DNA of 64,000 nucleotides, taken from NCBI GenBank assembly GCA_047404175.1, contig JBDOIW010000036.1, positions 4,351 to 68,350 on the forward strand, read 5' to 3'. Made by a program: the position numbers and the translations under genes. Of this stretch, positions 4,296 through 17,799 are shown one piece after another. The notes under the pieces were generated by a model, which ran no database searches, was not told where the DNA came from, and worked only from the letters and a program-made list of their open reading frames with translations. The stretch's first letter is position 1. Each line of letters starts with the position of its first letter. The DNA comes from Legionellales bacterium. Its GTDB lineage: Bacteria > Pseudomonadota > Gammaproteobacteria > M30B25.

Positions 4296-5574
4296 TAAAA
4301 AGACTTTATACCTAGGATGGATGATTTGTTTACTGGGAGCCTTCTTTTATTGCTACGAATATCTATTGCGAATAGAGCCTGTCACAATGATTGCTGAGCT
4401 CGAGGATTATTATCATCTTTCTGACACTGGTCTTGGTTTTTTAACTGCTTTTTACTATTATGCTTATACCCCAATGCAGCTTTTTGTGGGTGCGATTATT
4501 GATTATTATGGTCCGCGTCTTATTCTTACCATTGCGGTTGCTTGCTGTGCTTTAGGAAGCTTTTTATTTGGAAGTGCAGAAGTGGTGAGTATTGCCGCAG
4601 TGGGTCGTTTTATGATTGGCTTTGGTAGTGCTTTTGCTTTTGTTGGAGTGCTTAAACTGGCTGCAACATGGCTTCCAGTCAGATTTTTTGCCTTGTTTAC
4701 GGGATTAACAACAGGTCTTGGAATGGTGGGTGCGATGGCAGGTAATATGGCCATGGTTCAGATGATTCATAACATTGGTTGGCAGGAAACGATTCATTAT
4801 GGCACGGTTTTAGGTCTTATCTTAGTGCCCATTATTTGGTTTGTGATTCGTGATCACCATAGCTGGACTATAGGTGGGGAGTCACATCGGGATTTTGAGA
4901 GTCTTACTTCTGTCATTCAGGGTGTTAAATCAATTATGCTTAACCGACAAATGTGGATGAGTGGTATGATTGGCATGATCATGTTTTTTTCATTATCAAT
5001 TTTTGCTGAGGCTTGGGGGCCGCGCTTTTTGAGTTTGTTATACCCTGGCTCTAGCACGGATGCGATTACCTCCGCAAATGTTATGGTTTTTGCTGGTTGG
5101 CTAGTAGGGGCGCCTTTTGCAGGTTGGTTTTCTGATGCGATACAATCTCGGCGTTTACCTCTTATTTTGGGTAGCTTAACAACCTTTTTCTTATCTTCTT
5201 TTATTCTGTTTTACTCAGGTATTAGTATTGAGTTAATGCGCTTCTTATTGTTCTTATTTGGTTTTTGTTCAGCTGTTCAGATCAATTGCTTTGTTTTGGG
5301 GCGTGAAAACTGTCCAGACCACATGTCAGCAACTGCTGTTGCTTTTATCAATATGTGTGTGATGCTTAGTGGCATGGTATTTCAGCCTTTAGTGGGCGTT
5401 GTTTCTGACTATAGCCAGAGGCTAAGGTTGGGTATGACTAGTGTGGGCAGTAGTTTAAAAGAGCTGCCAGATTACCAGTACGCTCTAGCACTTATTCCTA
5501 TTGGATTACTTATTGCTTTTGTTTTAGCGCTTTGCATTGAAGATACTTATGGTCAGGGTGGTATTGAGGAATGA
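4282..5574 (+). CDS. MFS transporter, Pht-like
   Basis: About 12 TM helices; GAIIDYYGPR MFS loop motif; N-terminal FFYCYEYLLRI resembles Legionellales Pht transporters. Confidence 0.85.
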   Translation: MPNRDKKTLYLGWMICLLGAFFYCYEYLLRIEPVTMIAELEDYYHLSDTGLGFLTAFYYYAYTPMQLFVGAIIDYYGPRLILTIAVACCALGSFLFGSAEVVSIAAVGRFMIGFGSAFAFVGVLKLAATWLPVRFFALFTGLTTGLGMVGAMAGNMAMVQMIHNIGWQETIHYGTVLGLILVPIIWFVIRDHHSWTIGGESHRDFESLTSVIQGVKSIMLNRQMWMSGMIGMIMFFSLSIFAEAWGPRFLSLLYPGSSTDAITSANVMVFAGWLVGAPFAGWFSDAIQSRRLPLILGSLTTFFLSSFILFYSGISIELMRFLLFLFGFCSAVQINCFVLGRENCPDHMSATAVAFINMCVMLSGMVFQPLVGVVSDYSQRLRLGMTSVGSSLKELPDYQYALALIPIGLLIAFVLALCIEDTYGQGGIEE

Positions 5575-5816
5575 GCATCAGTCAAGCAGACTTAAAATGG
5601 CGATGCCGTCGCGGTATGTTAGAGCTTGATGAAATGCTCAATTCTTTCGTTGATCATCACTACGAGCAGCTTTCTTCTGATGATCAACTTGTGTTTATAC
5701 AGCTCTTGGAAGAAAGTGATCAAACATTGTGGCGATGGTTTTTGGCCATTGAGAAAAGTCCAGAAAAATACCATGACTTGATTGCACATGTGCTTAAAGC
5801 TTATCAAGCTCAGTAG
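5571..5816 (+). CDS. sdhE: Succinate dehydrogenase assembly factor SdhE (YgfY)
   Basis: LKWRCRRGMLELD signature. Confidence 0.95.
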   Translation: MSISQADLKWRCRRGMLELDEMLNSFVDHHYEQLSSDDQLVFIQLLEESDQTLWRWFLAIEKSPEKYHDLIAHVLKAYQAQ

Positions 5817-5965
5817 CTTAAGATCTTAGCATTCCCATGCATTATATTCCTTCAAATATAGTGTTAGTTCACGGTGAATCATGCTTTATATTGCATGCTT
5901 AATTTATCTGAAATATTTTTAAAAGAATGGTCTATACTTCTTGGTTGGGATTTAAAGAGTGTAAA

Positions 5966-7186
5966 ATGAAATTGTTTAAACCATTAAAATTAGCTCTTGC
6001 TTCTCTTGCCGCTGTGGGTATGATCGCAGCTTGTGGTGGTGGTTCAAGTAGTGGTAGTAATTCATCTTCAACCGTCCAGGCAACCCCCAAAACTTGTCCA
6101 GCAGGTGTTGAGTCTGCATTTCGAAACTTTCTCACTGATGAAGGGGCGGCGAACATTGCAAGTGGTGCAACTTCAGTGATATTTGAGGCAAGATACCAGG
6201 ATGATAACAATGTCCCAGACGATTATACAACGCTTGCTATTTTCTTTGAAGAGGGTGATCTCGATGGCACAGAGTTTGAGCAAATGCCACTTACCATTGT
6301 GCACAATGATCAAAACTATAGGTTGTCATTTGGTGTCGATACAGATGGTTATCCATGGTTAGCCTATCAGAACATAACAGATGTTGAATATGGTTACTAT
6401 GATGAACAAGATGTTGGATATTCAAATTGGATCTACTTACATGAAGGTCTTATCTATACGGGTGAATTTTGGTCAGACGATCTGGTTGATATGTTTGGAG
6501 ATTATCATGAAAATGAACATGGTGAAACACAAATACAGACCATAAATGATAACGGTGATATGTCATATGACAACTATGATGAAAATTTGCGTAATCAAAT
6601 TATAAATAATGAAAGATATATTGTGGTTCAGAATGAAAAAGTAAATCGGTTTTTCATGCTAGCATATGAGAAGCTAAAAGATGATAGTGGTCTTATGGAT
6701 GTTTACGATATTGATGCCCAAGATCTCGAAAGTCGTTTAGAAATATTACTAACCAGTATAGAACTTTATGAACAATACGCAAATGGCACAGTGGACTTAA
6801 GTGGTGTCGATATGACAAATACATGCTTAAAGCTGGTGATGGATAATGTGTTGCTAGACACAGAAGTTTTGGTCGAATATGACTCTACAACTGAAGAAAT
6901 GATATGGCAAGACCATCCTATCGCACACGATGTTATGAAGATTGATTTAAGTGGCAATCGTTGGTTTGATAAAAATTCATTACGTATCTTAGTGGACTCA
7001 TTATCCCAAGTGATTATTGATGAAGCAACTGGTAATATGTACTATTCTAAAGGAAACAGTTTAAAAGAGGTAGATCTTAAGGGAACATCTGTCACACAAC
7101 AAGATATTGATGATTTAATCAAAGAGGATCCCGATCGTTATTGGCACTTTATGTTACATAAAGTCAAAATCCTCATAAATGAATGA
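5966..7186 (+). CDS. Array lipoprotein 1 (acidic, C-terminal LRR-like module)
   Basis: Signal peptide MKLFKPLKLALASLAAVGMIAA|CGGG, Ser linker, TCP motif; C-terminal DLSG...CLKLVMDNV...IDLSGN; start set at 5966 by homology to paralogs. Confidence 0.85.
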   Translation: MKLFKPLKLALASLAAVGMIAACGGGSSSGSNSSSTVQATPKTCPAGVESAFRNFLTDEGAANIASGATSVIFEARYQDDNNVPDDYTTLAIFFEEGDLDGTEFEQMPLTIVHNDQNYRLSFGVDTDGYPWLAYQNITDVEYGYYDEQDVGYSNWIYLHEGLIYTGEFWSDDLVDMFGDYHENEHGETQIQTINDNGDMSYDNYDENLRNQIINNERYIVVQNEKVNRFFMLAYEKLKDDSGLMDVYDIDAQDLESRLEILLTSIELYEQYANGTVDLSGVDMTNTCLKLVMDNVLLDTEVLVEYDSTTEEMIWQDHPIAHDVMKIDLSGNRWFDKNSLRILVDSLSQVIIDEATGNMYYSKGNSLKEVDLKGTSVTQQDIDDLIKEDPDRYWHFMLHKVKILINE

Positions 7187-7199
7187 TCATCTTTCAATT

Positions 7200-7227
7200 A
7201 AAAAAGCCGCTTTAGAGCGGCTTTTTT
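7200..7227. terminator. Bidirectional intrinsic terminator, array copy 1
   Basis: AAAAAAGCCGCT-TTAG-AGCGGCTTTTTT. Confidence 0.9.
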
Positions 7228-7312
7228 GTGTTCGTCTTGAAGTTCAATTATCCAGCATAAATAAATATTTCAACTATACTTAGCGGGTTAATTTAATAAA
7301 TTAGGAAAAAAG
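7228..7312 (+). promoter_or_regulatory. Repeated array promoter/5'UTR module (copies near 9044-9127, 10905-10989, 12959-13045, partial 14810-14869)
   Basis: Shared TTGAAGTTCAA palindrome (three copies), ATAAATAAA, CTATACTT (-10 TATACT) and AGGAAAAAA RBS. Confidence 0.7.
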
Positions 7313-8959
7313 ATGAATACGTTTAAACAATTAAAATTAGGTATAGTCACATTAGCAAGCATTGGTATGATCGCAGCTTGCGGTGGAGGTTCTAGTAGTG
7401 GTTCTAGTGGTTCCAGCGTAAGTCCAATCAACAATGTGACAGGTACAACAACTTGCCCCAATGGACTTGACTTAGTTTTTGGGCAGCATTTTGCGTCTAA
7501 AGAAGATAGAATGCGCTTAGCAACTGGTGCAGATGTTATTAAGGATGCTCTATCTACTGCTGAAGTTATGCAAGACGCTGATCCCTTAGTTGTAGTTTTA
7601 ACAGGAGATTTAGCTAGAGCTATTGATCTTGGGGATGGACAAGTGGCTAATTTATCCATGGTTGTTAAGGTAAGTGAGGATAACGGTAGTGAAGTGATTA
7701 TGTTTGCTTACGTAGATCAGGAAGAAAAGGTTGTTTCTTCTATACCTTTAATAATGCCCTACATCACTGATTATATTACTAAGTCACTGGATACAGATGC
7801 ATATAAAAGAGCTTCAGAATTGTTAGTAACTCAAGCTAAAGACATAAATCCAGTAGATGTATTTACATATCTGGAGGAACATTCTGCTGAAAAAGCAAAA
7901 GATTTTCTTTTGCAGAGAATTTACGCTGAGATATCTGCATCTGGTAAAACTATACCTACAGTTTACGTTGTAATTGATGATGAAAATGACAAGGAGTTTT
8001 CAAATATTGACTTGGGTAATATGAAATGGAACGGTACTAATGAAGAAAAAATGCAAGCAGAAAAATATAGTAATCAAATACATCAACATTATGCTCACCT
8101 TCTTATAGATTACAATAAGTATTTAGAAGAATTTGTGAATTATTCTGCGAGATTGTCAGGTGTATCAGATGAGGCTACTGTTGGCGATGTTAAGGAATAT
8201 ATCTTAGGCATGCTAGAAGATTTTTTCCCTGATTTAGAGTTGGATTTGCAAAATAAGCCAGTAGAATATTGGGAATCATTTGACTGGGGGCAAATAAGTA
8301 AATCCAAAATAGACAAAGAAGCAATGTTAAAAAATTTCAAAGGATTGAAACTTGGTGATATTGTGCCAAGAAATTTAAGGTCAGATCTAAATGTTGTTAG
8401 TCAAACAACACAAAATTGGCTAGTAGCACTTGATCAATATACAGATAAGGCAGATAAAAAGTATAGCGGTTATAGTGATCTGGTAGAAAATACTCAAGTA
8501 TTATCATCTGCAGTTAGTGCTCTTAATCTGGCAGAAATATTATTAGCAGGTTTGTTTAATGGTACTATAAGCTTGAAGGGCTATGGTGTTGATGATGCTT
8601 GTATGGCTTTAATTGCTGATACAGTCGATTTCGATGTTTTTGGCAATGCAGTAACATCATTGGATCTTAGTAATAATAAGCTTGGTCCTGATGGATTGAG
8701 AGCTATTCTACAGCATTTCGATGCAAGAGATGCTAATGGTAATCGTATGCATGGTTTATCCATTAGTAGTATTAATATCTCTGGCAATGAAATGATTACA
8801 GAAGATGATGTGAACAAACTCATAGAGGAATTTTCAAGGATTCTTGGTGATGGTCTGTTCACTTCAACTATTACCATTTATCTAGATGAAACTTTGTTTG
8901 ACACGCATCAAAGGTCGCTTGAGTTAAACAAGATTATAGATGCAATGGAAATGGAATAA
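7313..8959 (+). CDS. Array lipoprotein 2
   Basis: MNTFKQLKLGIVTLASIGMIAA|CGGG lipobox; TTCP; LDLSNNKLGPDGLRAIL LRR-like unit. Confidence 0.88.
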   Translation: MNTFKQLKLGIVTLASIGMIAACGGGSSSGSSGSSVSPINNVTGTTTCPNGLDLVFGQHFASKEDRMRLATGADVIKDALSTAEVMQDADPLVVVLTGDLARAIDLGDGQVANLSMVVKVSEDNGSEVIMFAYVDQEEKVVSSIPLIMPYITDYITKSLDTDAYKRASELLVTQAKDINPVDVFTYLEEHSAEKAKDFLLQRIYAEISASGKTIPTVYVVIDDENDKEFSNIDLGNMKWNGTNEEKMQAEKYSNQIHQHYAHLLIDYNKYLEEFVNYSARLSGVSDEATVGDVKEYILGMLEDFFPDLELDLQNKPVEYWESFDWGQISKSKIDKEAMLKNFKGLKLGDIVPRNLRSDLNVVSQTTQNWLVALDQYTDKADKKYSGYSDLVENTQVLSSAVSALNLAEILLAGLFNGTISLKGYGVDDACMALIADTVDFDVFGNAVTSLDLSNNKLGPDGLRAILQHFDARDANGNRMHGLSISSINISGNEMITEDDVNKLIEEFSRILGDGLFTSTITIYLDETLFDTHQRSLELNKIIDAMEME

Positions 8960-9013
8960 AAAATTGGTGTTTTACCACAGTGGAGCACTGAATAATATGA
9001 TATTTATCTTCAC

Positions 9014-9043
9014 AAAAAAAAGCCGCTTCAGAGCGGCTTTTTT
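9014..9043. terminator. Intrinsic terminator, array copy 2
   Basis: A-tract-GCCGCT-TCAG-AGCGGC-T-tract. Confidence 0.9.
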
Positions 9044-9127
9044 GTGTTCGTCTTGAAGTTCAATCATCGAGTATAAATAAAAGATTCAACTATACTTAAC
9101 GCGTTAAATTAATAGCTAAGGAAAAAA

Positions 9128-10815
9128 ATGAATATATTAAAGCAATTAAAACTAGGTCTTGTGACATTAGCAAGCATTGGGATGATCGCTGCTTGTGGGG
9201 GTAGTTCAAGCAACGTCTCAAGCTCAAGTTCAGTCAATAAGGTAGTAGGAACAACAACGTGTCCCAAGGGGCTTGATTTGGTATTTGGGCAGCACTTTGC
9301 ATCTGAAGAAGATAGAATGCGTTTAGCATCTGGGGCAGAATCAGCAAGTAGTGAGGACGATCCATTTCATATATTTTTAACAGGAGATTTAGCTAAAACA
9401 GTTACTTTGACAGATAATCAAGCTAGTGAAGCTGGTGTTGCTTCTGGAACAAAAGCTAGCTTAGCTATGGCTATTTTTACAGAGAGCCTTTTTGATGAAA
9501 ATAGTGGCAGCCCAGACAGTCCTGTCATTGTATTTGGTTATGTGAGTGTTAATGATCGTGAGCTAATTGAGGTTATACCTGGATTTGTGCCCTTTAAAAC
9601 TAATAATATGGCTATGATCACTGATCCAAATGCACATGCGGAGACTTGGACAAAAATACAGGAAACAGGTAGCGAGCTAACACCAGATAATGTATTAAAA
9701 TTTTTTGAGGATAACAGTGAAAAAAAAGTAAAAGATTTTGTTATGCAGCAAATTTTTGAGCTTTTTAAGGAGACTAATGACCTTCCCTGGTATTATTTTG
9801 TAATCGATTTTGATGGATCTAGCGAAGAAGAGATGATTTCAAATATTGAGCTAGTGAATATGAAGTGGGGGGATAATGCAGAAGCAAAGGAGCGAGCAAA
9901 CAATTATAGTAAGCAATTACACGAGTATTATGGTCATCTAGTAAGCAATTACACGAGTATTATGGTCATCTTCTTATAGACTATAATAGTCATTTAGAAA
10001 GTTTCGTTGACTATTCTTTGGGTTTAGGAGATATCCATGATGCTACTGTTGGGGATGTCCTAGTAATAATGTCAGCGTTGGTAGAACCATATTGGGTAAA
10101 TATAGACGACTCAGCATCTATAGTTGATGCTCTTCACGGTTTCGGTTTACTTAGCTCTGAAGGTTATAAAGATTATGGCTTGGAAGATTATAAAAACTTA
10201 TATGAAGAGCACGCTCCAGAAGATTTAGATTCAACGGTAGAACGTAAGCTAAAAGATAATAAATATATTATGAAAAATTGGTTGCAAGCAGTTAGCCAGT
10301 ATAGAGCAGAACTTGAAGAAGCAGTTGAGCAAGGTGAGTCATTAGCAACAGGTGCAAATGAGGCTTATGGTGAGTATGTGAATAACACTCATGATATATT
10401 ATCAGCCTTACTTAATGCTATAGAGATAGCAGAAACAACAGTCAAGGGTTTGTATCACGGTTCTATCAGCTTGAGTGGACATGGTATTGATGATGCCTGT
10501 ATGGCTTTAATTGCTGATACTGTCGATTTTGATGTTTTGGGCAATGCAGTAACATCATTAGATCTTAGTAACAATAAGCTTGGTCCTGATGGATTGAGAG
10601 CTATTTTGAAGCATTTCGATGCAAGAGATGCTAATGGTAATCGTATGCATGGTTTATCCATCAGTAGTATTATTGTCTCAGGCAACGAAAGGATTACGGA
10701 TAGAGAAGTGGAAGAACTCATAAAAGAATTTCCAGACATTCTTGATGATAATCTTTTTCAAGCAAGTATCACTATTTTTTCATCTACAAGTTTGGGTGTG
10801 GGAAACGATGATTAA
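9128..10815 (+). pseudogene. Array lipoprotein 3, frameshifted by a 32-bp tandem duplication
   Basis: ORFs 9128-9979 and 10018-10815 join into one paralog of lipoprotein 2 when one copy of the 9907-9970 duplication is removed. Confidence 0.9.
9907..9970 (+). repeat. Perfect 2 x 32-bp tandem duplication
   Basis: TAGTAAGCAATTACACGAGTATTATGGTCATC twice. Confidence 0.97.
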
Positions 10816-10876
10816 GAAATAGATGCTCCTTAGTAAGAAGCTGGTCCTTAAATACTATGGGCTGACAGTGTTCTTC

Positions 10877-10904
10877 AAAAAAGCCGCTTCAGAGCGGCTT
10901 TTTT
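10877..10904. terminator. Intrinsic terminator, array copy 3
   Basis: AAAAAAGCCGCT-TCAG-AGCGGCTTTTTT. Confidence 0.9.
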
Positions 10905-10989
10905 GTGTTCTTTTTGAAGTTCAATTATCCAGCATAAATAAATATTTCAACTATACTTGTCTCGATTATTTAATAACTGAGGAAAAAAA

Positions 10990-12870
10990 ATGAATACGTT
11001 TAATCAATTAAAATTAGGTATTGTCACATTAGCAAGCATTGGTATGATAGCTGCGTGTGGTGGTGGTTCAAGTAGTGGTAGTAGTTCAGCTGCAGGAGCA
11101 AAAGCGGCTGCTCCTTCAACGTGTCCTACAAAGATTCAGTTTGCTTTAAGAGAGTTTTTAACTGATGAATCTGCGGCTAAGTTAGCCAGTGGTGCATCCA
11201 TGCAAGACATAGAAGCAACAGGGGATTTAGCTTGGGTTTTAGTTTCAGAAGAAGGTGATTTTTGGTATGACACCATTTATCTCAATGAAGATGGTACCTT
11301 ATCTAACACAGATGCAAATGGTGGAACTCAATTGACTTTAGTGATGTACGGTACTGGTCATCCAACGCAAACCGCTATCGATTCGAATTATGATAGAGGT
11401 ATTCAGGATTCTGAGTCATATTCGGAGAATCGTTCTTATATTGATTTTGTAACAACTACCTATGATATTTTTGAAGATATGAACTTCGCTTATGTTGATT
11501 TGAATAAAGGTGTGGATGAGAACAGTCATTCTGTATTATTTTTATTGAGATCAACATTATATGCAAATGCAGTGCTGGATGAAACTCTTGTTGGTTCTGA
11601 AAGAGTATTATTCCCTAATCTTCTCGACCTTACAGCAGATAATGCTCTATCCAATAATTATCAAGTCATGAGTATTAGCGATGAAAATAAACAGAAGCTT
11701 ATACTTGATTTAGCAAAGGCTGTGATTGCAAGTGAGAGCTATGATGTCACCAACTTTAGGACTTATGAGCAAAATCAGTCACAAGAAACAGGTACTGTTG
11801 ACTATTCTTATGAAGAAAAGGATGGGAGATATACTGAGGTAGAAACTTATTATAATAGCGATATGAACGTGGTCTTTGAAGACACGTATTCGGATGTTCT
11901 GAGTTATGATTATATAGATGCGACCTACACTAGTCGTGAATATGGTGATGACGAATCTCTTTTACAGGTTTTCTCATATGAGATGTATGATGACAATACG
12001 CCTGACAACTACGAGTATAGTAGCGAATCGTTATATTATTGGGGGGATCGAGGGGCTAATGATAATCAGTTAGCTAGGCAAGTGATTCATAAGCATCCAA
12101 ATGGAAAAGCTCATTCAACTGATGGCAGTGATTTGTATGAATCATTTACCTATAATCAGGAGGGTACATTGATTCGTCATGTTGTAGACACAGAAGGATA
12201 CCGGAAAAAATTTATGTACGATGAAGATGAAAATATTACTATCATGTCACAACATCAGTTTGATTTAGAGACACATGAAATGATTACAACTACTTATTAT
12301 TCACCAGATTCTGATGGAAATCTTCAGGAATTAACGGATCAGGATATAATCGAGTTATTAGTGGCTCAGAATGAACAACTCTATGATTCATTGGGTGATG
12401 CCTGGTATGGGATGATGTCTGATATTCACGCATCGCGCGTGGATGAGGTATTCAACTACAAAGAAGGCTTAGCTGGTTACCTCAATCAATTTTCACAGCT
12501 TAATGCTGGGGCAATTATGATGTATGATGCATTTAAATCTGGAACACTACCACTCAACAAGACAGATCTTAGTCAAGCCTGCTTAGTAAAAGTGATGAAA
12601 GATGTTCCCTTGGACGGAGATGACAACGAGGGGATTGCACCAGTGGAGATTATTAACCTAAGCAACAACAAAACAGTAACTGTTGAAGCACTGAAAGCGA
12701 TGTTAGAAGAATTAGAAACGAATGGTAAAGGAGAGAGCATTATTTCAATTGATGTTAGAAATACTAGCATTACAGCAGATCAGGCTAAGGATCTTATGGA
12801 TACAGAGTCAATGCTAAGTATCTATGAAGTTTTAGGTATTACACTGATTCATGATGGAATGGAGAACTAA
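10990..12870 (+). CDS. Array lipoprotein 4 (Tyr/Asp-rich passenger)
   Basis: Same lipoprotein signal; STCP; C-terminal ACLVKVMKDV...INLSNN...IDVRNTSIT. Confidence 0.88.
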   Translation: MNTFNQLKLGIVTLASIGMIAACGGGSSSGSSSAAGAKAAAPSTCPTKIQFALREFLTDESAAKLASGASMQDIEATGDLAWVLVSEEGDFWYDTIYLNEDGTLSNTDANGGTQLTLVMYGTGHPTQTAIDSNYDRGIQDSESYSENRSYIDFVTTTYDIFEDMNFAYVDLNKGVDENSHSVLFLLRSTLYANAVLDETLVGSERVLFPNLLDLTADNALSNNYQVMSISDENKQKLILDLAKAVIASESYDVTNFRTYEQNQSQETGTVDYSYEEKDGRYTEVETYYNSDMNVVFEDTYSDVLSYDYIDATYTSREYGDDESLLQVFSYEMYDDNTPDNYEYSSESLYYWGDRGANDNQLARQVIHKHPNGKAHSTDGSDLYESFTYNQEGTLIRHVVDTEGYRKKFMYDEDENITIMSQHQFDLETHEMITTTYYSPDSDGNLQELTDQDIIELLVAQNEQLYDSLGDAWYGMMSDIHASRVDEVFNYKEGLAGYLNQFSQLNAGAIMMYDAFKSGTLPLNKTDLSQACLVKVMKDVPLDGDDNEGIAPVEIINLSNNKTVTVEALKAMLEELETNGKGESIISIDVRNTSITADQAKDLMDTESMLSIYEVLGITLIHDGMEN

Positions 12871-12932
12871 AACTGAATATGGTGTTTAATATTGAAATGT
12901 AATAGGGCGCTAATGAAGGCAGTCCAAAAATG

Positions 12933-12958
12933 AAAAAGCCGCTTTAGAGCGGCTTTTT
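12933..12958. terminator. Intrinsic terminator, array copy 4
   Basis: AAAAAGCCGCT-TTAG-AGCGGCTTTTT. Confidence 0.9.
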
Positions 12959-13045
12959 CTTGTCTGTTAAAAAGTGATAATAATCCAGAATAAATAAATA
13001 TTACAACTATACTTAACGAGTTAAATTAATAGCTTTGGAGAAAAG

Positions 13046-14395
13046 ATGAATGCATTAAAACAATTGAAACTAGGACTTGTGACATTAGCAAGCACTGGTA
13101 TAATCGCAGCTTGTGGTGGTTCAAGTGGTGGCTCTAGCTCTGGGTCAGTAAGTGTCCAAAATACGTCAACTTGCCCGGTAGGGTTAGGTTTAGTCTTAAA
13201 GAAGCAACTTACAAAAGAGGCTGAACAACGCCTAGCTGCTGGCGCATCAACAACGTCTAATGGTGTGGATGTCTTAAAACGGATTAGCAAACCGTATAAA
13301 TTTGACGAAAATCATGCGTTGTATCAAGAGACCATTGGAAAGGATTCTAAGAAGCTGTATAGAGCAGTGGCTGCTGTAGAGATTGATACTTATGATGATT
13401 CCGGTAATGCTATGAAAACCAATGCTATGGGCTTTGTTTATGTCGATAGTGAAGGCAAAGTCAGTGAAAACATACCATTATTTGTTCCTTTTAGCAATTA
13501 TGATGTGGATAAAGAAGGTGAAGTGACAGAAGCAGTGGTACCCGTATTTAGGTGGAATGCTTACAATAGCAATACTGATTCAATCATGAATGGCGATCAA
13601 GTCAGTACAATACAAAAATATTACGGAGATCTTTTTATCGACTGGATTGTCTATAAGAAAAAGTATGAGTCCATATGGAAGTTATTTGAAGAAGAGGATC
13701 TTGATGATTCTATTGCTGATACTAGAGTAGATTCACTAATTCCTTCAGATTTTCGTGCTGACGTTGTTAAGGTTAGAGCTGTTGCTGAAAAGTGGACGAT
13801 CGCTGGTAACTATCTGTTGGGTGAGATAGGTTTTGAATTGAAAGATTCCGCAGATGAAACACTAGAAGGAACACTTCTCGAAGATTCCTTTGGTGACTTT
13901 GCTGAAGCAGTTGATTTTAGTGATGAAATAGATGAAATATTAAGCATGGTTGACATATTTGAATCATTGGTTACAGGATTACAAGATGGTGTTCTTGATT
14001 TAAGGGATCTAGGGGTCAATGATGCATGTTTGAAGCTAGTGATTGATAATGTGGACTTAGACGGGGATGTTGGTGCAGCTATCAGTAAGTTGGATTTGAG
14101 AGATAATGCAATTACTATTTCAGGATTGCGAAACGTTTTACGTCATCTTGATATGAGAGACAAAGATGGCAATCGAATTCATGGATTAGGTATCGGTAGT
14201 ATCGACATATCAGGTAATAATATCAATAATACAGAGCTTGACGACGCTAAAAAGGAATTTGAGGGTCTATTGGAGGGAGTGATTTTTACGCATATCAAAA
14301 TTATCATGAATATGACGGTGAAAGAAGCGTCAGAAATAATTGATGAATATGAAGATGAAGATGAAGATGAAGAAGATGAAGATGATGAAGAGTAA
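13046..14395 (+). CDS. Array lipoprotein 5 (poly-acidic tail)
   Basis: Lipobox IIAA|CGG; STCP; DACLKLVIDNV, LDLRDNAITISGLR; ends EDEDEDEEDEDDEE. Confidence 0.88.
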   Translation: MNALKQLKLGLVTLASTGIIAACGGSSGGSSSGSVSVQNTSTCPVGLGLVLKKQLTKEAEQRLAAGASTTSNGVDVLKRISKPYKFDENHALYQETIGKDSKKLYRAVAAVEIDTYDDSGNAMKTNAMGFVYVDSEGKVSENIPLFVPFSNYDVDKEGEVTEAVVPVFRWNAYNSNTDSIMNGDQVSTIQKYYGDLFIDWIVYKKKYESIWKLFEEEDLDDSIADTRVDSLIPSDFRADVVKVRAVAEKWTIAGNYLLGEIGFELKDSADETLEGTLLEDSFGDFAEAVDFSDEIDEILSMVDIFESLVTGLQDGVLDLRDLGVNDACLKLVIDNVDLDGDVGAAISKLDLRDNAITISGLRNVLRHLDMRDKDGNRIHGLGIGSIDISGNNINNTELDDAKKEFEGLLEGVIFTHIKIIMNMTVKEASEIIDEYEDEDEDEEDEDDEE

Positions 14396-14423
14396 CCCAT
14401 GAATTTGGAGTAAATAATACAAG

Positions 14424-14450
14424 AAAAAGCCGCTTTATGCGGCTTTTTTT
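14424..14450. terminator. Intrinsic terminator, array copy 5
   Basis: AAAAAGCCGC-TTTAT-GCGGCTTTTTTT. Confidence 0.88.
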
Positions 14451-14451
14451 G

Positions 14452-14624
14452 TTCGTCATCAATGTGGCGCAAGGTTGGACCTATATAGAGTTGGCGTGGT
14501 CGGCCTAATTGATAGTCGCTATTACGCATTTCAAGCCAATGGGCAACCCAACCAGTTGTGCGAGCCAAAGCAAAAATGGTAGTAAAAAAGCGTTTGGGAA
14601 TGCCAAGTGCGCTTAAAGTAAGGC
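14452..14624 (-). pseudogene. gltA: Remnant of citrate synthase 3' end (about 57 codons, stop changed to GAA)
   Basis: Translates LTLSALGIPKRFFTTIFALARTTGWVAHWLEMRNSDYQLGRPRQLYIGPTLRHIDD; 11 mismatches in 173 bp versus gltA by manual alignment. Confidence 0.93.
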
Positions 14625-14869
14625 TAGTGTGAAAATAAGCCTTAGAATAAATCTTATATAGAAAATAGAGATCTAAATGTCATGGCTATGATTGACGGTA
14701 AACATAGTAATAAAAGGAGTGTTGGGCCTAACTATAACGGTTGCCTATGTGCAAGAGAAAAATTGAAAAAATTAGTGTTTGATGAATTTATATTAAAGCT
14801 GTATTTGTCCATAATTAATATAAATGTCATCTATACTTAACTCATTAAATTAATAGATTAGGAAAAAAG

Positions 14870-16465
14870 ATGAATACGTTTAAACAATTAAAATTAGGTC
14901 TTGTGACATTAGCAAGCATTGGGATGATCGCAGCTTGTGGTGGTGGTTCAGGTAGTGTTGGCACTGCTTCAGGAGCAAAAGCAGTGGCTAAAACCTGCCC
15001 TTCGGGTATTGATCTTGTTTTAAGAGATTATGTTAGCGAAGAAGGCGCTAAGAGGATTGCTAGTGGAGCCGAGAATCTTAGATATGAGTTATTGGAGCAC
15101 ATAGGTACCAATCTGTTTATCTCTGATCTTGATATGGTAACCATAGACCAAGGAGCGACGAAATTTTTACTCTTGGATTGGATGAAAGTTAGTTCTGGTC
15201 AACATACTATTGAAAATCATCAGCGGCGAGCAGCAATTGTGATTGTGTATCTGGTATTGTTGACTGAAATTGTTGCTTTAAATGATTTAAATGAGGATGC
15301 ATTGCATATTGTAACAAGGCTTAATACGAAAGAAGATGGTTCTGAGATTCAAGAATACATGTTGACCGATACCGATTTTGAGGATTATCTCCAGTATACT
15401 CCTAATCCTGAGTATTACGATGGATCGTTTTCCCAACGTGGGAACATAAAAGAACTCTCAGAGTCAATATTTAAAAACATTGTCATCTTTACAGAGGATA
15501 AACCTGTAGCATCAGAATCGGATGAACAGCAAATGATACGTTATCAATTTATTGCAGAAAAGCAGCATATTTTAGGAGAGATGATAATGCATATGCTCAG
15601 TGTTAAAGTTGCACAAGAATCTGACAGAGTGTTAGCTGTATCATTAGCTCAAATGAATGATCTTTCGAAGAAAAATATGGAATTGGATTCTCGTATTGAT
15701 GATTTAAAATCTGAGAAAGCTAATTTACAGTCTCAGAAAGATGATTTACAGTCTCAGAATGATGATTTACAGTCTCAGAATGATGATTTACAGTCTCAGA
15801 AAGCTGATTTAACATCTGAGAAAGCTGATTTACAGTTTAAGTTCGATGTCTCTAAAGGAAAAGTTGAGGCTCTAGATAAGCAAATTGTGGGTCTAAATGC
15901 GCAAATTGCAGGCAAAGATAAAGAAATAGCTGGTTTTATAGCAAAGGTAAATAAGCTATCTAGTGATAAGGAAGCATTAACAGCTGAAAAAGAGCGTTTG
16001 GAAGCTAAGTATGATACAGATATTGCAGGTCTAGAAAGCAAACTAGATGATATGCAAAACAAGACTGAAGCTCTTACAAAACAATTAAGTGAGGCTTTGG
16101 CTCAAAAATCTAAGTTTGAAAGGATGTTGTCTCAAGGTGTGGTTGATTTGAGTGGAGTTGCGATGAGTAATGCTTGTTTAACTTTAGTCATGGATAACAT
16201 TGTACTTGATGAAACAAAAGATGTGGGTGATGCTGACTATGATTCAAAAAAAGAAGTACGTAAGTTGGATTTTAGTGGCAATAAATGGTTTGACAAAGAC
16301 TCACTCAGAATTGTGTTTGATTCACTCTTGACTCAAGAAAGAACTTTTCTAAAGGAAATAAATTTAGAGGGTACTTCTGTTACTCTGGATGAGATTACAA
16401 AATTGCTCGATGAAGATGACTATTCTGAATTGCATGATATGGACGTTAAGCATGATGATTTATAA
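14870..16465 (+). CDS. Array lipoprotein 6 (coiled-coil passenger)
   Basis: Same signal peptide; KTCP; heptad repeats; NACLTLVMDNI, LDFSGNKWFDKDSLR. Confidence 0.88.
   Translation: MNTFKQLKLGLVTLASIGMIAACGGGSGSVGTASGAKAVAKTCPSGIDLVLRDYVSEEGAKRIASGAENLRYELLEHIGTNLFISDLDMVTIDQGATKFLLLDWMKVSSGQHTIENHQRRAAIVIVYLVLLTEIVALNDLNEDALHIVTRLNTKEDGSEIQEYMLTDTDFEDYLQYTPNPEYYDGSFSQRGNIKELSESIFKNIVIFTEDKPVASESDEQQMIRYQFIAEKQHILGEMIMHMLSVKVAQESDRVLAVSLAQMNDLSKKNMELDSRIDDLKSEKANLQSQKDDLQSQNDDLQSQNDDLQSQKADLTSEKADLQFKFDVSKGKVEALDKQIVGLNAQIAGKDKEIAGFIAKVNKLSSDKEALTAEKERLEAKYDTDIAGLESKLDDMQNKTEALTKQLSEALAQKSKFERMLSQGVVDLSGVAMSNACLTLVMDNIVLDETKDVGDADYDSKKEVRKLDFSGNKWFDKDSLRIVFDSLLTQERTFLKEINLEGTSVTLDEITKLLDEDDYSELHDMDVKHDDL
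15701..15835 (+). repeat. About 6.5 x 21-bp tandem repeat encoding heptads (DLQSQND-like)
   Basis: GATTTACAGTCTCAGAATGAT and variants in tandem. Confidence 0.92.
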
Positions 16466-16498
16466 AAAGTAACCCATGAATTTGGAGTAAATAATATG

Positions 16499-16529
16499 AA
16501 AAAAAGCCGCTCTGGAGCGGCTTTTTTTT
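16499..16529. terminator. Bidirectional terminator between lipoprotein 6 and gltA
   Basis: A-tract-GCCGCTC-TG-GAGCGGC-T-tract directly after the gltA stop. Confidence 0.92.
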
Positions 16530-16530
16530 G

Positions 16531-17799
16531 TTAGTCATCAATGTGGCGCAAGGTTGGGCCGGTATAGAGTTGGCGTGGTCGGCCTAATTGATAGTCGCTA
16601 TTACGCATTTCAAGCCAATGGGCAACCCAGCCTGTTGTGCGAGCCAAAGCAAACAGGGTAGTAAAAAAGCGTTTGGGAATCCCAAGTGCGCTTAAGGTAA
16701 TGCCTGAGTAAAAATCAACGTTTGGATATAGATTGCGAGATTTGAAGTAATCGTCTTCTAAGGCAATTTTTTCCAAGGCCATGGCAAGTTCAAACAAAGG
16801 TGAGTCTCCTTTATCAGCCACACTCAGTACCTCATGACACGTTGAGCGCATGATAGTTGCCCTTGGATCATAGCTTTTGTAAACACGGTGCCCAAAGCCC
16901 ATGAGTCTGAAGTTGTCATTGGGATCTTTAGCTTTAGCAATATAGTTTTCAATGTGATCAACAGAGCCAATGGTTTCAAGCATATCAAGGCAGGCCTCGT
17001 TAGCGCCACCATGAGCTTTGCCCCACAAGGCAGCAACACCAGCGGCAACGCAGGCGTAAGGGTCAGCACCTGTTGATCCTGCCAGGCGCACAGTCGATGT
17101 GGATGCATTTTGTTCGTGATCGGCATGTAGTATAAAGATTTTATCAAGTGCTTTGGCCAAAACATGTTCTTTTTCTGTAAGCGGTCTTCCTCGTAAAAGA
17201 GCTAGAAAGTGCTCTGCGTAATGCTCTGGTTGCAAATGATTATCATAGGGCTGTTGGTGCTGATGGCAAAAAATAGCTGCAATGAGACACGGAATCTTGG
17301 CGACTAAGTCATAAGCTGCCTGCTCACGCACGGAAGATTGGCTGTAATCATTTTGGTCATGATGAAGTGACGCTAATTGCCCTATGGCTGCTATGAGGAG
17401 CGCCATGGGGTGTCCGTCAGTATTACCCTCTAGTAAGCGATGAATCGAAGCGTCAAGTGTCATTTGAGATAAAATGGTCTCCCTAAATACTTTGCTCGAT
17501 TGTTCTTGAGGTAGCTCGCCTTGTATTAACAGTTGAGCAGTCTCTAAAAAATCTTTTTTTGCAGCTAATTCTTCTATAGGGTAGCCACGATGTAATAAGA
17601 TACCCTCGTTACCATCAATATATGTGATTTTAGATTCGCATGCTGCAGTGACCTTAAACCCTGGGTCGTAAACCCAGGCGTTTTGTTTAGCAATGTCTTG
17701 CATGGGAATGACATCATTGCCTAAAGTAGCTTCGATAGTGCTTAGTGGAATGGTGGTCTTGTTGTTGAGGTTAAGAGCGATAGAATCATGCTTGCTCAT
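16531..17799 (-). CDS. gltA: Citrate synthase
   Basis: HADHEQNAST, AHGGANE, GFGHRVYKSYDPRA, YPNVDFYSG. Confidence 0.99.
   Translation of the reverse strand: MSKHDSIALNLNNKTTIPLSTIEATLGNDVIPMQDIAKQNAWVYDPGFKVTAACESKITYIDGNEGILLHRGYPIEELAAKKDFLETAQLLIQGELPQEQSSKVFRETILSQMTLDASIHRLLEGNTDGHPMALLIAAIGQLASLHHDQNDYSQSSVREQAAYDLVAKIPCLIAAIFCHQHQQPYDNHLQPEHYAEHFLALLRGRPLTEKEHVLAKALDKIFILHADHEQNASTSTVRLAGSTGADPYACVAAGVAALWGKAHGGANEACLDMLETIGSVDHIENYIAKAKDPNDNFRLMGFGHRVYKSYDPRATIMRSTCHEVLSVADKGDSPLFELAMALEKIALEDDYFKSRNLYPNVDFYSGITLSALGIPKRFFTTLFALARTTGWVAHWLEMRNSDYQLGRPRQLYTGPTLRHIDD

Follow-up and report, generated by a model that had tools for sequence, protein, structure and literature searches.

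Leucine-rich repeat (LRR) domains of the ribonuclease-inhibitor (RI) type, such as the C-terminal LRR of tropomodulin and leiomodin, the LRRs of NLR proteins and Legionella LegL1, consist of alpha/beta units in which an L..L.L..N motif is joined to a helix. Some LRR solenoids are closed by an LRRNT, a four-cysteine cluster inside the N-terminal cap, and lamprey variable lymphocyte receptors combine constant caps with variable inserted cassettes. A comparable arrangement is known from flagellin, in which conserved N and C termini pack together and the central domains are hypervariable. Among lipoproteins, the Vlp, Vsp and Vsa families of Mycoplasma are variable families with conserved 5' cassettes, and some spirochaete lipoproteins carry LRRs. 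We analyzed a tandem array of six lipoprotein genes (P1 to P6) in a stretch of 64,000 nucleotides from a Legionellales bacterium (GenBank assembly GCA_047404175.1, contig JBDOIW010000036.1, positions 4,351 to 68,350; referred to as the window), whose products keep two conserved ends around a middle part that differs between paralogs.

The explanation that we favour, with a probability of roughly 55%, is that the array encodes a lineage-restricted lipoprotein family built on a small RI-type LRR domain that is split by a domain insertion. In architecture the proteins are a novel variation on a known fold, and they form a rare family without a Pfam or NCBIfam model. With the RI-type LRRs they share the alpha/beta units, and the tropomodulin LRR, at about 165 residues, is near the minimal size represented by the insert-free relative P0033 (1io0, Z 7.8). 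They differ from these LRRs in having only three units, in being exported and lipidated instead of cytosolic, in the 205-633 residues that separate the cap from the first repeat, and in scoring below the cut-off of the Pfam family LRR_6. As in LRRNT domains and lamprey receptors, a Cys-bearing cap would close the N-terminal end of the solenoid, with constant ends around a variable middle; here, however, one cap Cys would pair with one Cys of the first repeat, the variable part is not made of LRR cassettes, and there is no somatic assembly. The likeness to flagellin is one of logic only, constant ends serving as scaffold for a variable, looped-out middle: there is no relation in sequence or fold, the scaffold is an LRR and not a coiled-coil filament core, the proteins carry a lipid anchor and, unlike for flagellin, we know of no polymerisation of these lipoproteins. 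A Pfam search of the seven proteins at E up to 1 gave no match to LRRNT or flagellin, and the N-terminal motif (N motif) holds a single Cys. Like the Mycoplasma families, the array consists of lipoprotein paralogs in tandem that share a conserved promoter-plus-signal-peptide cassette and diverge in their mature parts. It differs from them in that no phase-variation device (homopolymer tract or invertible element) was seen among the repeats identified in it, that its C-terminal module is conserved as well, and that its host lives planktonically in the sea and has a rhodopsin gene.

The signal peptides of all six proteins are near-identical and contain the lipobox IAAC (residues 20-23), followed by a Ser/Gly-rich stretch. 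A lipobox-like site conforming to [LVI][ASTVI][GAS]C is present in all 16 full-length family members, and the genome contains a match to the LspA family (E 4.7e-43). In E. coli, Gly at position +2 leads to sorting to the outer membrane; because the lipobox is followed by Gly at +2, the proteins are probably located in the outer membrane. Searches of the same genome for the Slam family and for the ATP/ADP translocase family gave no match, but in both cases the control genomes were silent too. Each of the five intact proteins contains exactly three Cys residues, namely the lipobox Cys, one in a TCP motif and one in an [AT]C[LM] motif that sits about 110-135 residues before the C terminus. This pattern of one lipidated Cys, one N-motif Cys and one C-motif Cys per paralog had been proposed in the initial annotation, and the motifs it described, TCP...E...[LI]A[STA]GA and [AT]C[LM]..[VI].D.[VI]..D, were recovered. 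All 15 Cys that the five intact proteins contain among their 2,560 residues fall in three aligned columns, and chance is therefore excluded.

The C-terminal module is, judged by profile comparison and predicted structure, a three-unit RI-type LRR. P2 (19.9 bits) and P3b, the 3' piece of the broken P3 (22.8 bits), fell just short of the 23.4-bit cut-off of the Pfam family LRR_6, which had no match on P1, P4, P5 and P6, and no Pfam or NCBIfam family scored above its cut-off on these proteins. A profile of the family matched 4r5d, a designed RI-type LRR, with an E of 5.9e-10 over two units. The AlphaFold2 model of P5, made from a 12-row alignment, reaches a predicted local distance difference test (pLDDT) value of 74-89 at residues 300-410, and DSSP assigned to its LRR region three strand-helix units and a closing strand. 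Strand and helix alternate as in an alpha/beta solenoid in both predicted structures, that of P5 and that of P0033. When these two models were searched with Foldseek and VIA-align, the top matches were RI-type LRRs (NLRP3, NOD2, RNase inhibitor and tropomodulin), with VIA-align Z of 8-10 and root-mean-square deviation (rmsd) of 2.5-3.6 over about 100-110 aligned residues, and Foldseek E down to 2.7e-4. An ESM Atlas search with P2 returned generic LRR leads only (best score 0.82). The LRR-like units that had been noticed from the sequence are thus borne out by the sub-threshold LRR_6 matches, the profile and the model, but their number is not: since the Cys motif (G.L.L......AC[LM].LV) is itself the first LRR unit, there are three units plus a closing strand instead of two units following the motif.

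Both ends of the chain probably form one domain, as the initial annotation had supposed; this is supported by the predicted structures of P5 and P0033 and by relatives without an insert. The P5 model has a mean pLDDT of 55.7, with about 60 at the N motif. Among its best 50 VIA-align rows, 42 span from residues 37-55 to residues 421-449 and align only 92-139 residues, in each case to one uninterrupted stretch of LRR in the target; the range denotes the first and last aligned residue only. Seven further rows start at 300-315 and one is meaningless (rmsd 12.3). Because a long range coincides with a short, contiguous LRR alignment, the model appears to put the N motif at the position of a preceding repeat or cap, with the insert outside. 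The metagenomic protein P0033, which was found by a profile search of 1.84 billion representative proteins, is a lipoprotein of 212 amino acids (aa) that lacks an insert: HACP...L.LRDYL stands right after the signal peptide, and 54 residues separate the HACP motif from the first-repeat motif DHC. Its C module matches that of the family with an hhalign probability of 94.7% (E 5.6e-8). The P0033 model, built from 26 alignment rows, has a mean pLDDT of 77, a predicted template modelling score (pTM) of 0.72 and up to pLDDT 86 in the N-motif block, and matches to RI-type LRRs (Z 8-9) cover residues 39-212. Insert-free exported RI-type LRR proteins were also found in the genome of the sister species (G001; three proteins of 502, 314 and 212 aa) and on contig C3 of the host's own genome (one protein). 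In these G001 and C3 proteins, a first-repeat Cys of the DDAC or NDC type is preceded, at a distance of 28-30 residues, by a Cys that opens a short helix, so that over all insert-free relatives, P0033 included, the two Cys lie 28-54 residues apart. A homologue search with the 212-aa G001 protein found only three proteins.

Several results weigh against joining the two ends in one domain. A hidden Markov model (HMM) of the N motif alone, run on 2,295 open reading frames (ORFs) of the host genome and the G001 locus and on P0033, found only the six array genes; it missed a seventh member of the family on contig C66 of the host genome, P0033 and the insert-free LRR proteins. Because of these misses, the equation of the N motif with the insert-free cap draws on pattern and position and not on statistics. 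The P5 model is weak overall, given its mean pLDDT, the value at the N motif and its 12-row alignment. Complex prediction of the N motif of P5 (residues 36-72) with its C module (residues 285-449) scored 0.21 and 0.14, where the mark was 0.32, which speaks neither for nor against. The failure of the HMM on insert-free LRR proteins and the low confidence of the P5 model at the N motif would suit a linear, three-part lipoprotein in which the N motif is an independent element beside the tether, such as a signal for sorting, processing or recognition by a partner, does not pack on the LRR, and the Cys residues are free or bonded between molecules, for instance in dimers or with another envelope protein. 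The family member P0006, which has lost one of the two Cys, fits such a protein as well. At the DNA level, moreover, the 5' cassette with its signal peptide is homogenised (87-89% identity, non-coding DNA included), so concerted evolution could account for some of the conservation of the N termini in the window. We nevertheless consider the linear arrangement unlikely. Metagenomic family members as distant as P0016, P0021 and P0023/P0026/P0032, whose overall identity does not exceed 25%, still have the motif, which rules out local gene conversion as the cause of its conservation; both AlphaFold2 models set the N motif within the LRR superposition; and the identities of N motif and C module correlate across family members (r 0.78, over 55 non-independent pairs).

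A disulfide between the two Cys is plausible. Both residues are present in 20 of 21 aligned full-length or insert-free sequences, P0006 being the exception; a double loss does not occur, and the set is too small to speak for or against covariation. Of the 16 full-length members, 14 have an even number of Cys in the mature protein (two Cys in eleven members, four in P0033 and ten in each of two large proteins), whereas P0006 (1) and P0023 (11) have an odd number. Since the mature forms of the window proteins hold just these two Cys, they can make one intramolecular bond at most. At the equivalent helix position the later repeats have Gly instead of Cys, and the DsbA and DsbB families are found above their cut-offs in the host genome. 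Going by the DSSP assignments and the known geometry of RI-type solenoids, each Cys would sit where a helix begins, the two helices being adjacent and the two Cys on one edge of the solenoid, where a bond is plausible. Two considerations count against the bond. P0006 has no N-terminal Cys and has kept the C-terminal one, and a P0006-like 5' end occurs in contigs of two RNA libraries (X2 and X3), which share the signal-peptide region at 11048-11085 and then continue with different sequence; the exception is therefore probably real. The core consensus of RI-type repeats, moreover, itself includes a Cys at this helix position, and conservation of the Cys is thus by itself no proof of a disulfide. 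The divergence of the X2 and X3 contigs at 11085 further indicates that in other strains this 5' cassette precedes different paralogs.

The segments between the two motifs measure 205-448 aa and not 220-470 aa as first estimated, and they are strongly acidic (17-22% Asp+Glu). By BLAST they fall into groups: P2, P3 and P0002, to which P5 is linked via a motif of 20 aa; P4, P0005 and P0006; P1 and P0008 (weakly); and P6 and P0007, each alone. The insert of P6 is a coiled coil with a 21-nucleotide (heptad) tandem repeat of about eight copies at 15680-15847, which encodes units of the DDLQSQN type. The seventh member in the host genome lies outside the array (788 aa; G000:C66:10243-12606, locus L016 1495-3861) and has the same cap and C module around an insert of 590 aa with eight further Cys. 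This Cys-rich type of insert is also found in its close metagenomic relatives P0023, P0026 and P0032, two of which are encoded on one contig. When eight insert groups were compared with hhalign (28 pairs), nothing was significant, with a probability of 2.2% or less throughout. Independently of these comparisons, the 21-nucleotide repeat of P6 is a likely site of length variation.

The claim that the inserts are exchangeable passengers of different types was upheld in part: groups show no significant similarity to each other, but P2, P3 and P5 share one type and a hairpin motif recurs. The inserts of three of the six paralogs are thus homologous (P2-P3a E 4.8e-29; P2-P5 E 0.001 over the 20-aa motif), and the best hhalign hits, between groups A and B (E 0.07) and A and D (E 0.12), fall on the same FAYVD-like motif; both results tell against unrelated passengers. 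MAFFT aligned the h.FAYVD motif in every member just after the N motif, where the P5 model has a beta-hairpin. Because this weak motif recurs at the same position, the inserts could descend from a single ancestral insert, inserted once, whose copies diverged by fast change, repeat expansion, insertions and deletions, so that the split of the scaffold would be real and nothing would have been swapped. Such a history agrees with the middle common to P2, P3 and P5, with the hairpin motif (..L.L....D/G... h.FAYVD) at the same place in all groups, with the repeat expansion in the middle of P6, with end types that go together with insert groups, and with a tblastn similarity between P1 and P6 that extends about 65 residues upstream of the C module. 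We think it improbable all the same, given that none of the 28 between-group comparisons was significant and that the identity between P4 and metagenomic P0005 drops from 100% in the N motif and 98% in the C module to 60% in the middle, a step more easily made by recombination than by uniform divergence. A comparable step is seen between P6 and P0008 (66% in the N motif, 61% in the C module and 27% in the middle). Such steps between ends and middle would fit recombination between the conserved ends or very strong diversifying pressure on the middle.

Taken as a split LRR, the proteins would work as follows. After export, the protein would be lipidated at Cys23 and presumably reside in the outer membrane, and a tether of about 15-20 Ser/Gly-rich residues would follow. 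The TCP...ASGA motif would form the N-terminal capping helix pair of the LRR, after which the chain would leave the scaffold for 205-448 residues, running through a beta-hairpin and then mostly helical or coiled-coil sequence. A long helix would lead it back to the first LRR unit (G.L.L......[AT]C[LM]), followed by two further units and the closing strand. The cap would dock on the first repeat, a packing that is taken from the models, and the Cys of the cap and of the first repeat would most probably be joined by a disulfide made by DsbA/DsbB, which would tie off the base of the insert. LRR and cap would stay constant while the insert evolves fast. The island would grow by tandem duplication, with the ends and the 5' terminator-promoter-signal-peptide cassette remaining much more alike than the middles. 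Most likely, the products are envelope proteins held by a lipid anchor, probably in the outer membrane, whose constant cap-plus-LRR scaffold carries a fast-evolving, looped-out domain, and the array is most likely a flexible-island device that diversifies this domain. The insert may act as a variable binding or antigenic face; to call the scaffold a display platform is conjecture. A bolder version, which is possible but doubtful, holds that a cap plus three LRR repeats, secured by a single disulfide, tolerates unrelated inserts of 200-630 residues, and that the middles are replaced in the population by recombination in the conserved ends and 5' cassette, giving a streamlined planktonic bacterium a few envelope proteins that are quickly re-armed, be it to evade phage or grazers or to bind changing partners. 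Such a set would be a lipoprotein counterpart of systems with constant ends and a variable middle of the flagellin or variable-lymphocyte-receptor type.

The array is an island of about 10.7 kb without counterpart in the sister species. It runs from an sdhE-like gene through the six plus-strand lipoprotein genes (5966-16465), of which one copy (P3) is broken, to gltA (Table 1). In the sole congener, G001, contig C31 reads alr-MFS-sdhE-gltA, with nothing between sdhE and gltA. The GC content of the array (5900-16500) is 36.2%, compared with 41.8% and 43.1% in the flanks. Behind each gene stands its own hairpin terminator, followed by a conserved upstream cassette that reaches into the signal peptide; before P2, P3, P4, P5 and P6 this cassette consists of the repeat families D1, D3 and D7 with 64-98% DNA identity. 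A terminator scan found 14 sites, compared with 4.9 ± 2.5 expected. The split of P3 by a duplication of 32 bp may be a real mutation or an assembly artefact.

Table 1. Features of the lipoprotein array and its borders (positions in the window; Cys by residue number of the encoded protein).
Feature	Position	Strand	Cys residues	Remarks
sdhE-like small gene, left island border	5571..5816	+		81-aa ORF
P1, 406 aa	5966..7186	+	23, 44, 287	N motif 6092-6169; insert 205 aa, acidic and aromatic; C module 6785-7183
Hairpin terminator 3' of P1	7199..7228	+		First copy of terminator-plus-5' cassette (repeat families D1, D3, D7)
P2, 548 aa	7313..8959	+	23, 48, 430	N motif 7451-7531; insert 343 aa; C module 8561-8956
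P3a, 5' piece of broken P3	9128..9979	+	23, 45	N motif 9257-9337; between-motif segment 213 aa; 41% identity to P2 over 296 aa
Exact 32-bp tandem duplication, frame shift in P3	9907..9971	+		Splits P3 into two ORFs
P3b, 3' piece of P3	10018..10815	+	161	Between-motif segment 147 aa; C module 10459-10812
P4, 626 aa	10990..12870	+	23, 45, 531	N motif 11119-11196; insert 448 aa, 9% Tyr; C module 12541-12867
P5, 449 aa	13046..14395	+	23, 43, 328	N motif 13169-13246; insert 247 aa; C module 13988-14392
Copy of gltA 3' end and terminator region, between P5 and P6	14385..14649	-		Repeat families D6, D9
P6, 531 aa	14870..16465	+	23, 43, 436	N motif 14993-15070; insert 355 aa, coiled coil; C module 16136-16462
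gltA (citrate synthase), right island border	16531..17799	-		G001 homologue 75% identical

Traces of growth by duplication are visible at the right end of the island. The repeats D6 and D9 pair 14444-14649 with 16523-16728 and 14385-14434 with 16462-16511, each at 90% identity, and an ORF on the minus strand (14179-14568) repeats the C terminus of gltA. This copy of a gltA fragment is the footprint of the duplication that placed P6 beside gltA. Within the C modules, P3b (10397-10696) and P2 (8499-8798) are 85% identical in DNA, and the rate of synonymous substitution (dS) between them is 0.22-0.38, compared with 0.6 or more, or saturation, elsewhere. Windowed ratios of nonsynonymous to synonymous substitution (dN/dS) are noisy where the alignment is poor, and only the dS of the P2/P3b C module stands out; together with the 85% DNA identity this low value is a hint of gene conversion. 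One could take such observations to mean that the locus is an ordinary array of decaying paralogs, with ends conserved by recent duplication and gene conversion and with incidental Cys residues. One copy is already broken, the dS of the P2/P3b C module is low, and the family is very rare, in clusters of one or two members. Such decay is nonetheless highly improbable, as five of the six copies are intact and have a terminator each, exactly matching contigs occur in three RNA libraries, and both Cys columns and the architecture are kept in distant members and in the 788-aa member on C66.

Contigs from three seawater RNA libraries, which belong to three studies, match P2, P3b, P4, P5 and P6 without a difference over short stretches. 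They are a hint of transcription of the array genes, bearing in mind that DNA can occur in RNA libraries and that parts of the array without contig cover are uninformative. The stretch is also present in sequencing runs labelled marine or seawater. When 41 genomes (40 relatives and the host's own) were searched with P5, a match was found in the host's own genome only. In a sample of 400 genomes of the class, four genomes matched at E 1e-5 or better, with true members only in the host's own genome; the match in G001 consists of the insert-free relatives. Two candidates from this sample were rejected as family members, one (G186) matching only in the lipoprotein signal peptide and the other (G037) being a generic RI-type LRR without the cap. 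In protein collections the family forms clusters of one or two sequences. Its members often occur several per contig, with three on a contig of 6.7 kb, two on one of 5.5 kb and two on one of 10.6 kb. Scans of genome contigs with P2 and with P0021 gave no match, nor did scans of metagenome contigs with a degenerate DNA pattern of the signal-peptide region and with an alignment as query. Among the entries listed by a full-text literature search, we found no account of an LRR whose cap and first repeat are split by a large insert.

If the split-LRR explanation holds, the family would offer protein engineers a compact natural scaffold that presents arbitrary domains. It would also represent a previously undescribed route to envelope-protein diversity in a flexible island of a marine bacterium with a small genome. 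The rarity of the family limits its reach for now.

The host genome comprises 1.40 Mb in 87 contigs, is 93% complete and contains a rhodopsin gene (C76:2386-2685). In the sister genome, the three insert-free LRR genes stand in tandem (G001:C56, locus L017 5214-10610, minus strand) and adjoin a gene for a eukaryote-like protein kinase of 592 aa, for which a tblastn search of the window's genome gave no match. By tblastn, many more loci of RI-type LRRs are present on the host's own contigs C3, C26, C40, C52, C9 and C28, an LRR repertoire that is unusually large for a genome of 1.4 Mb.

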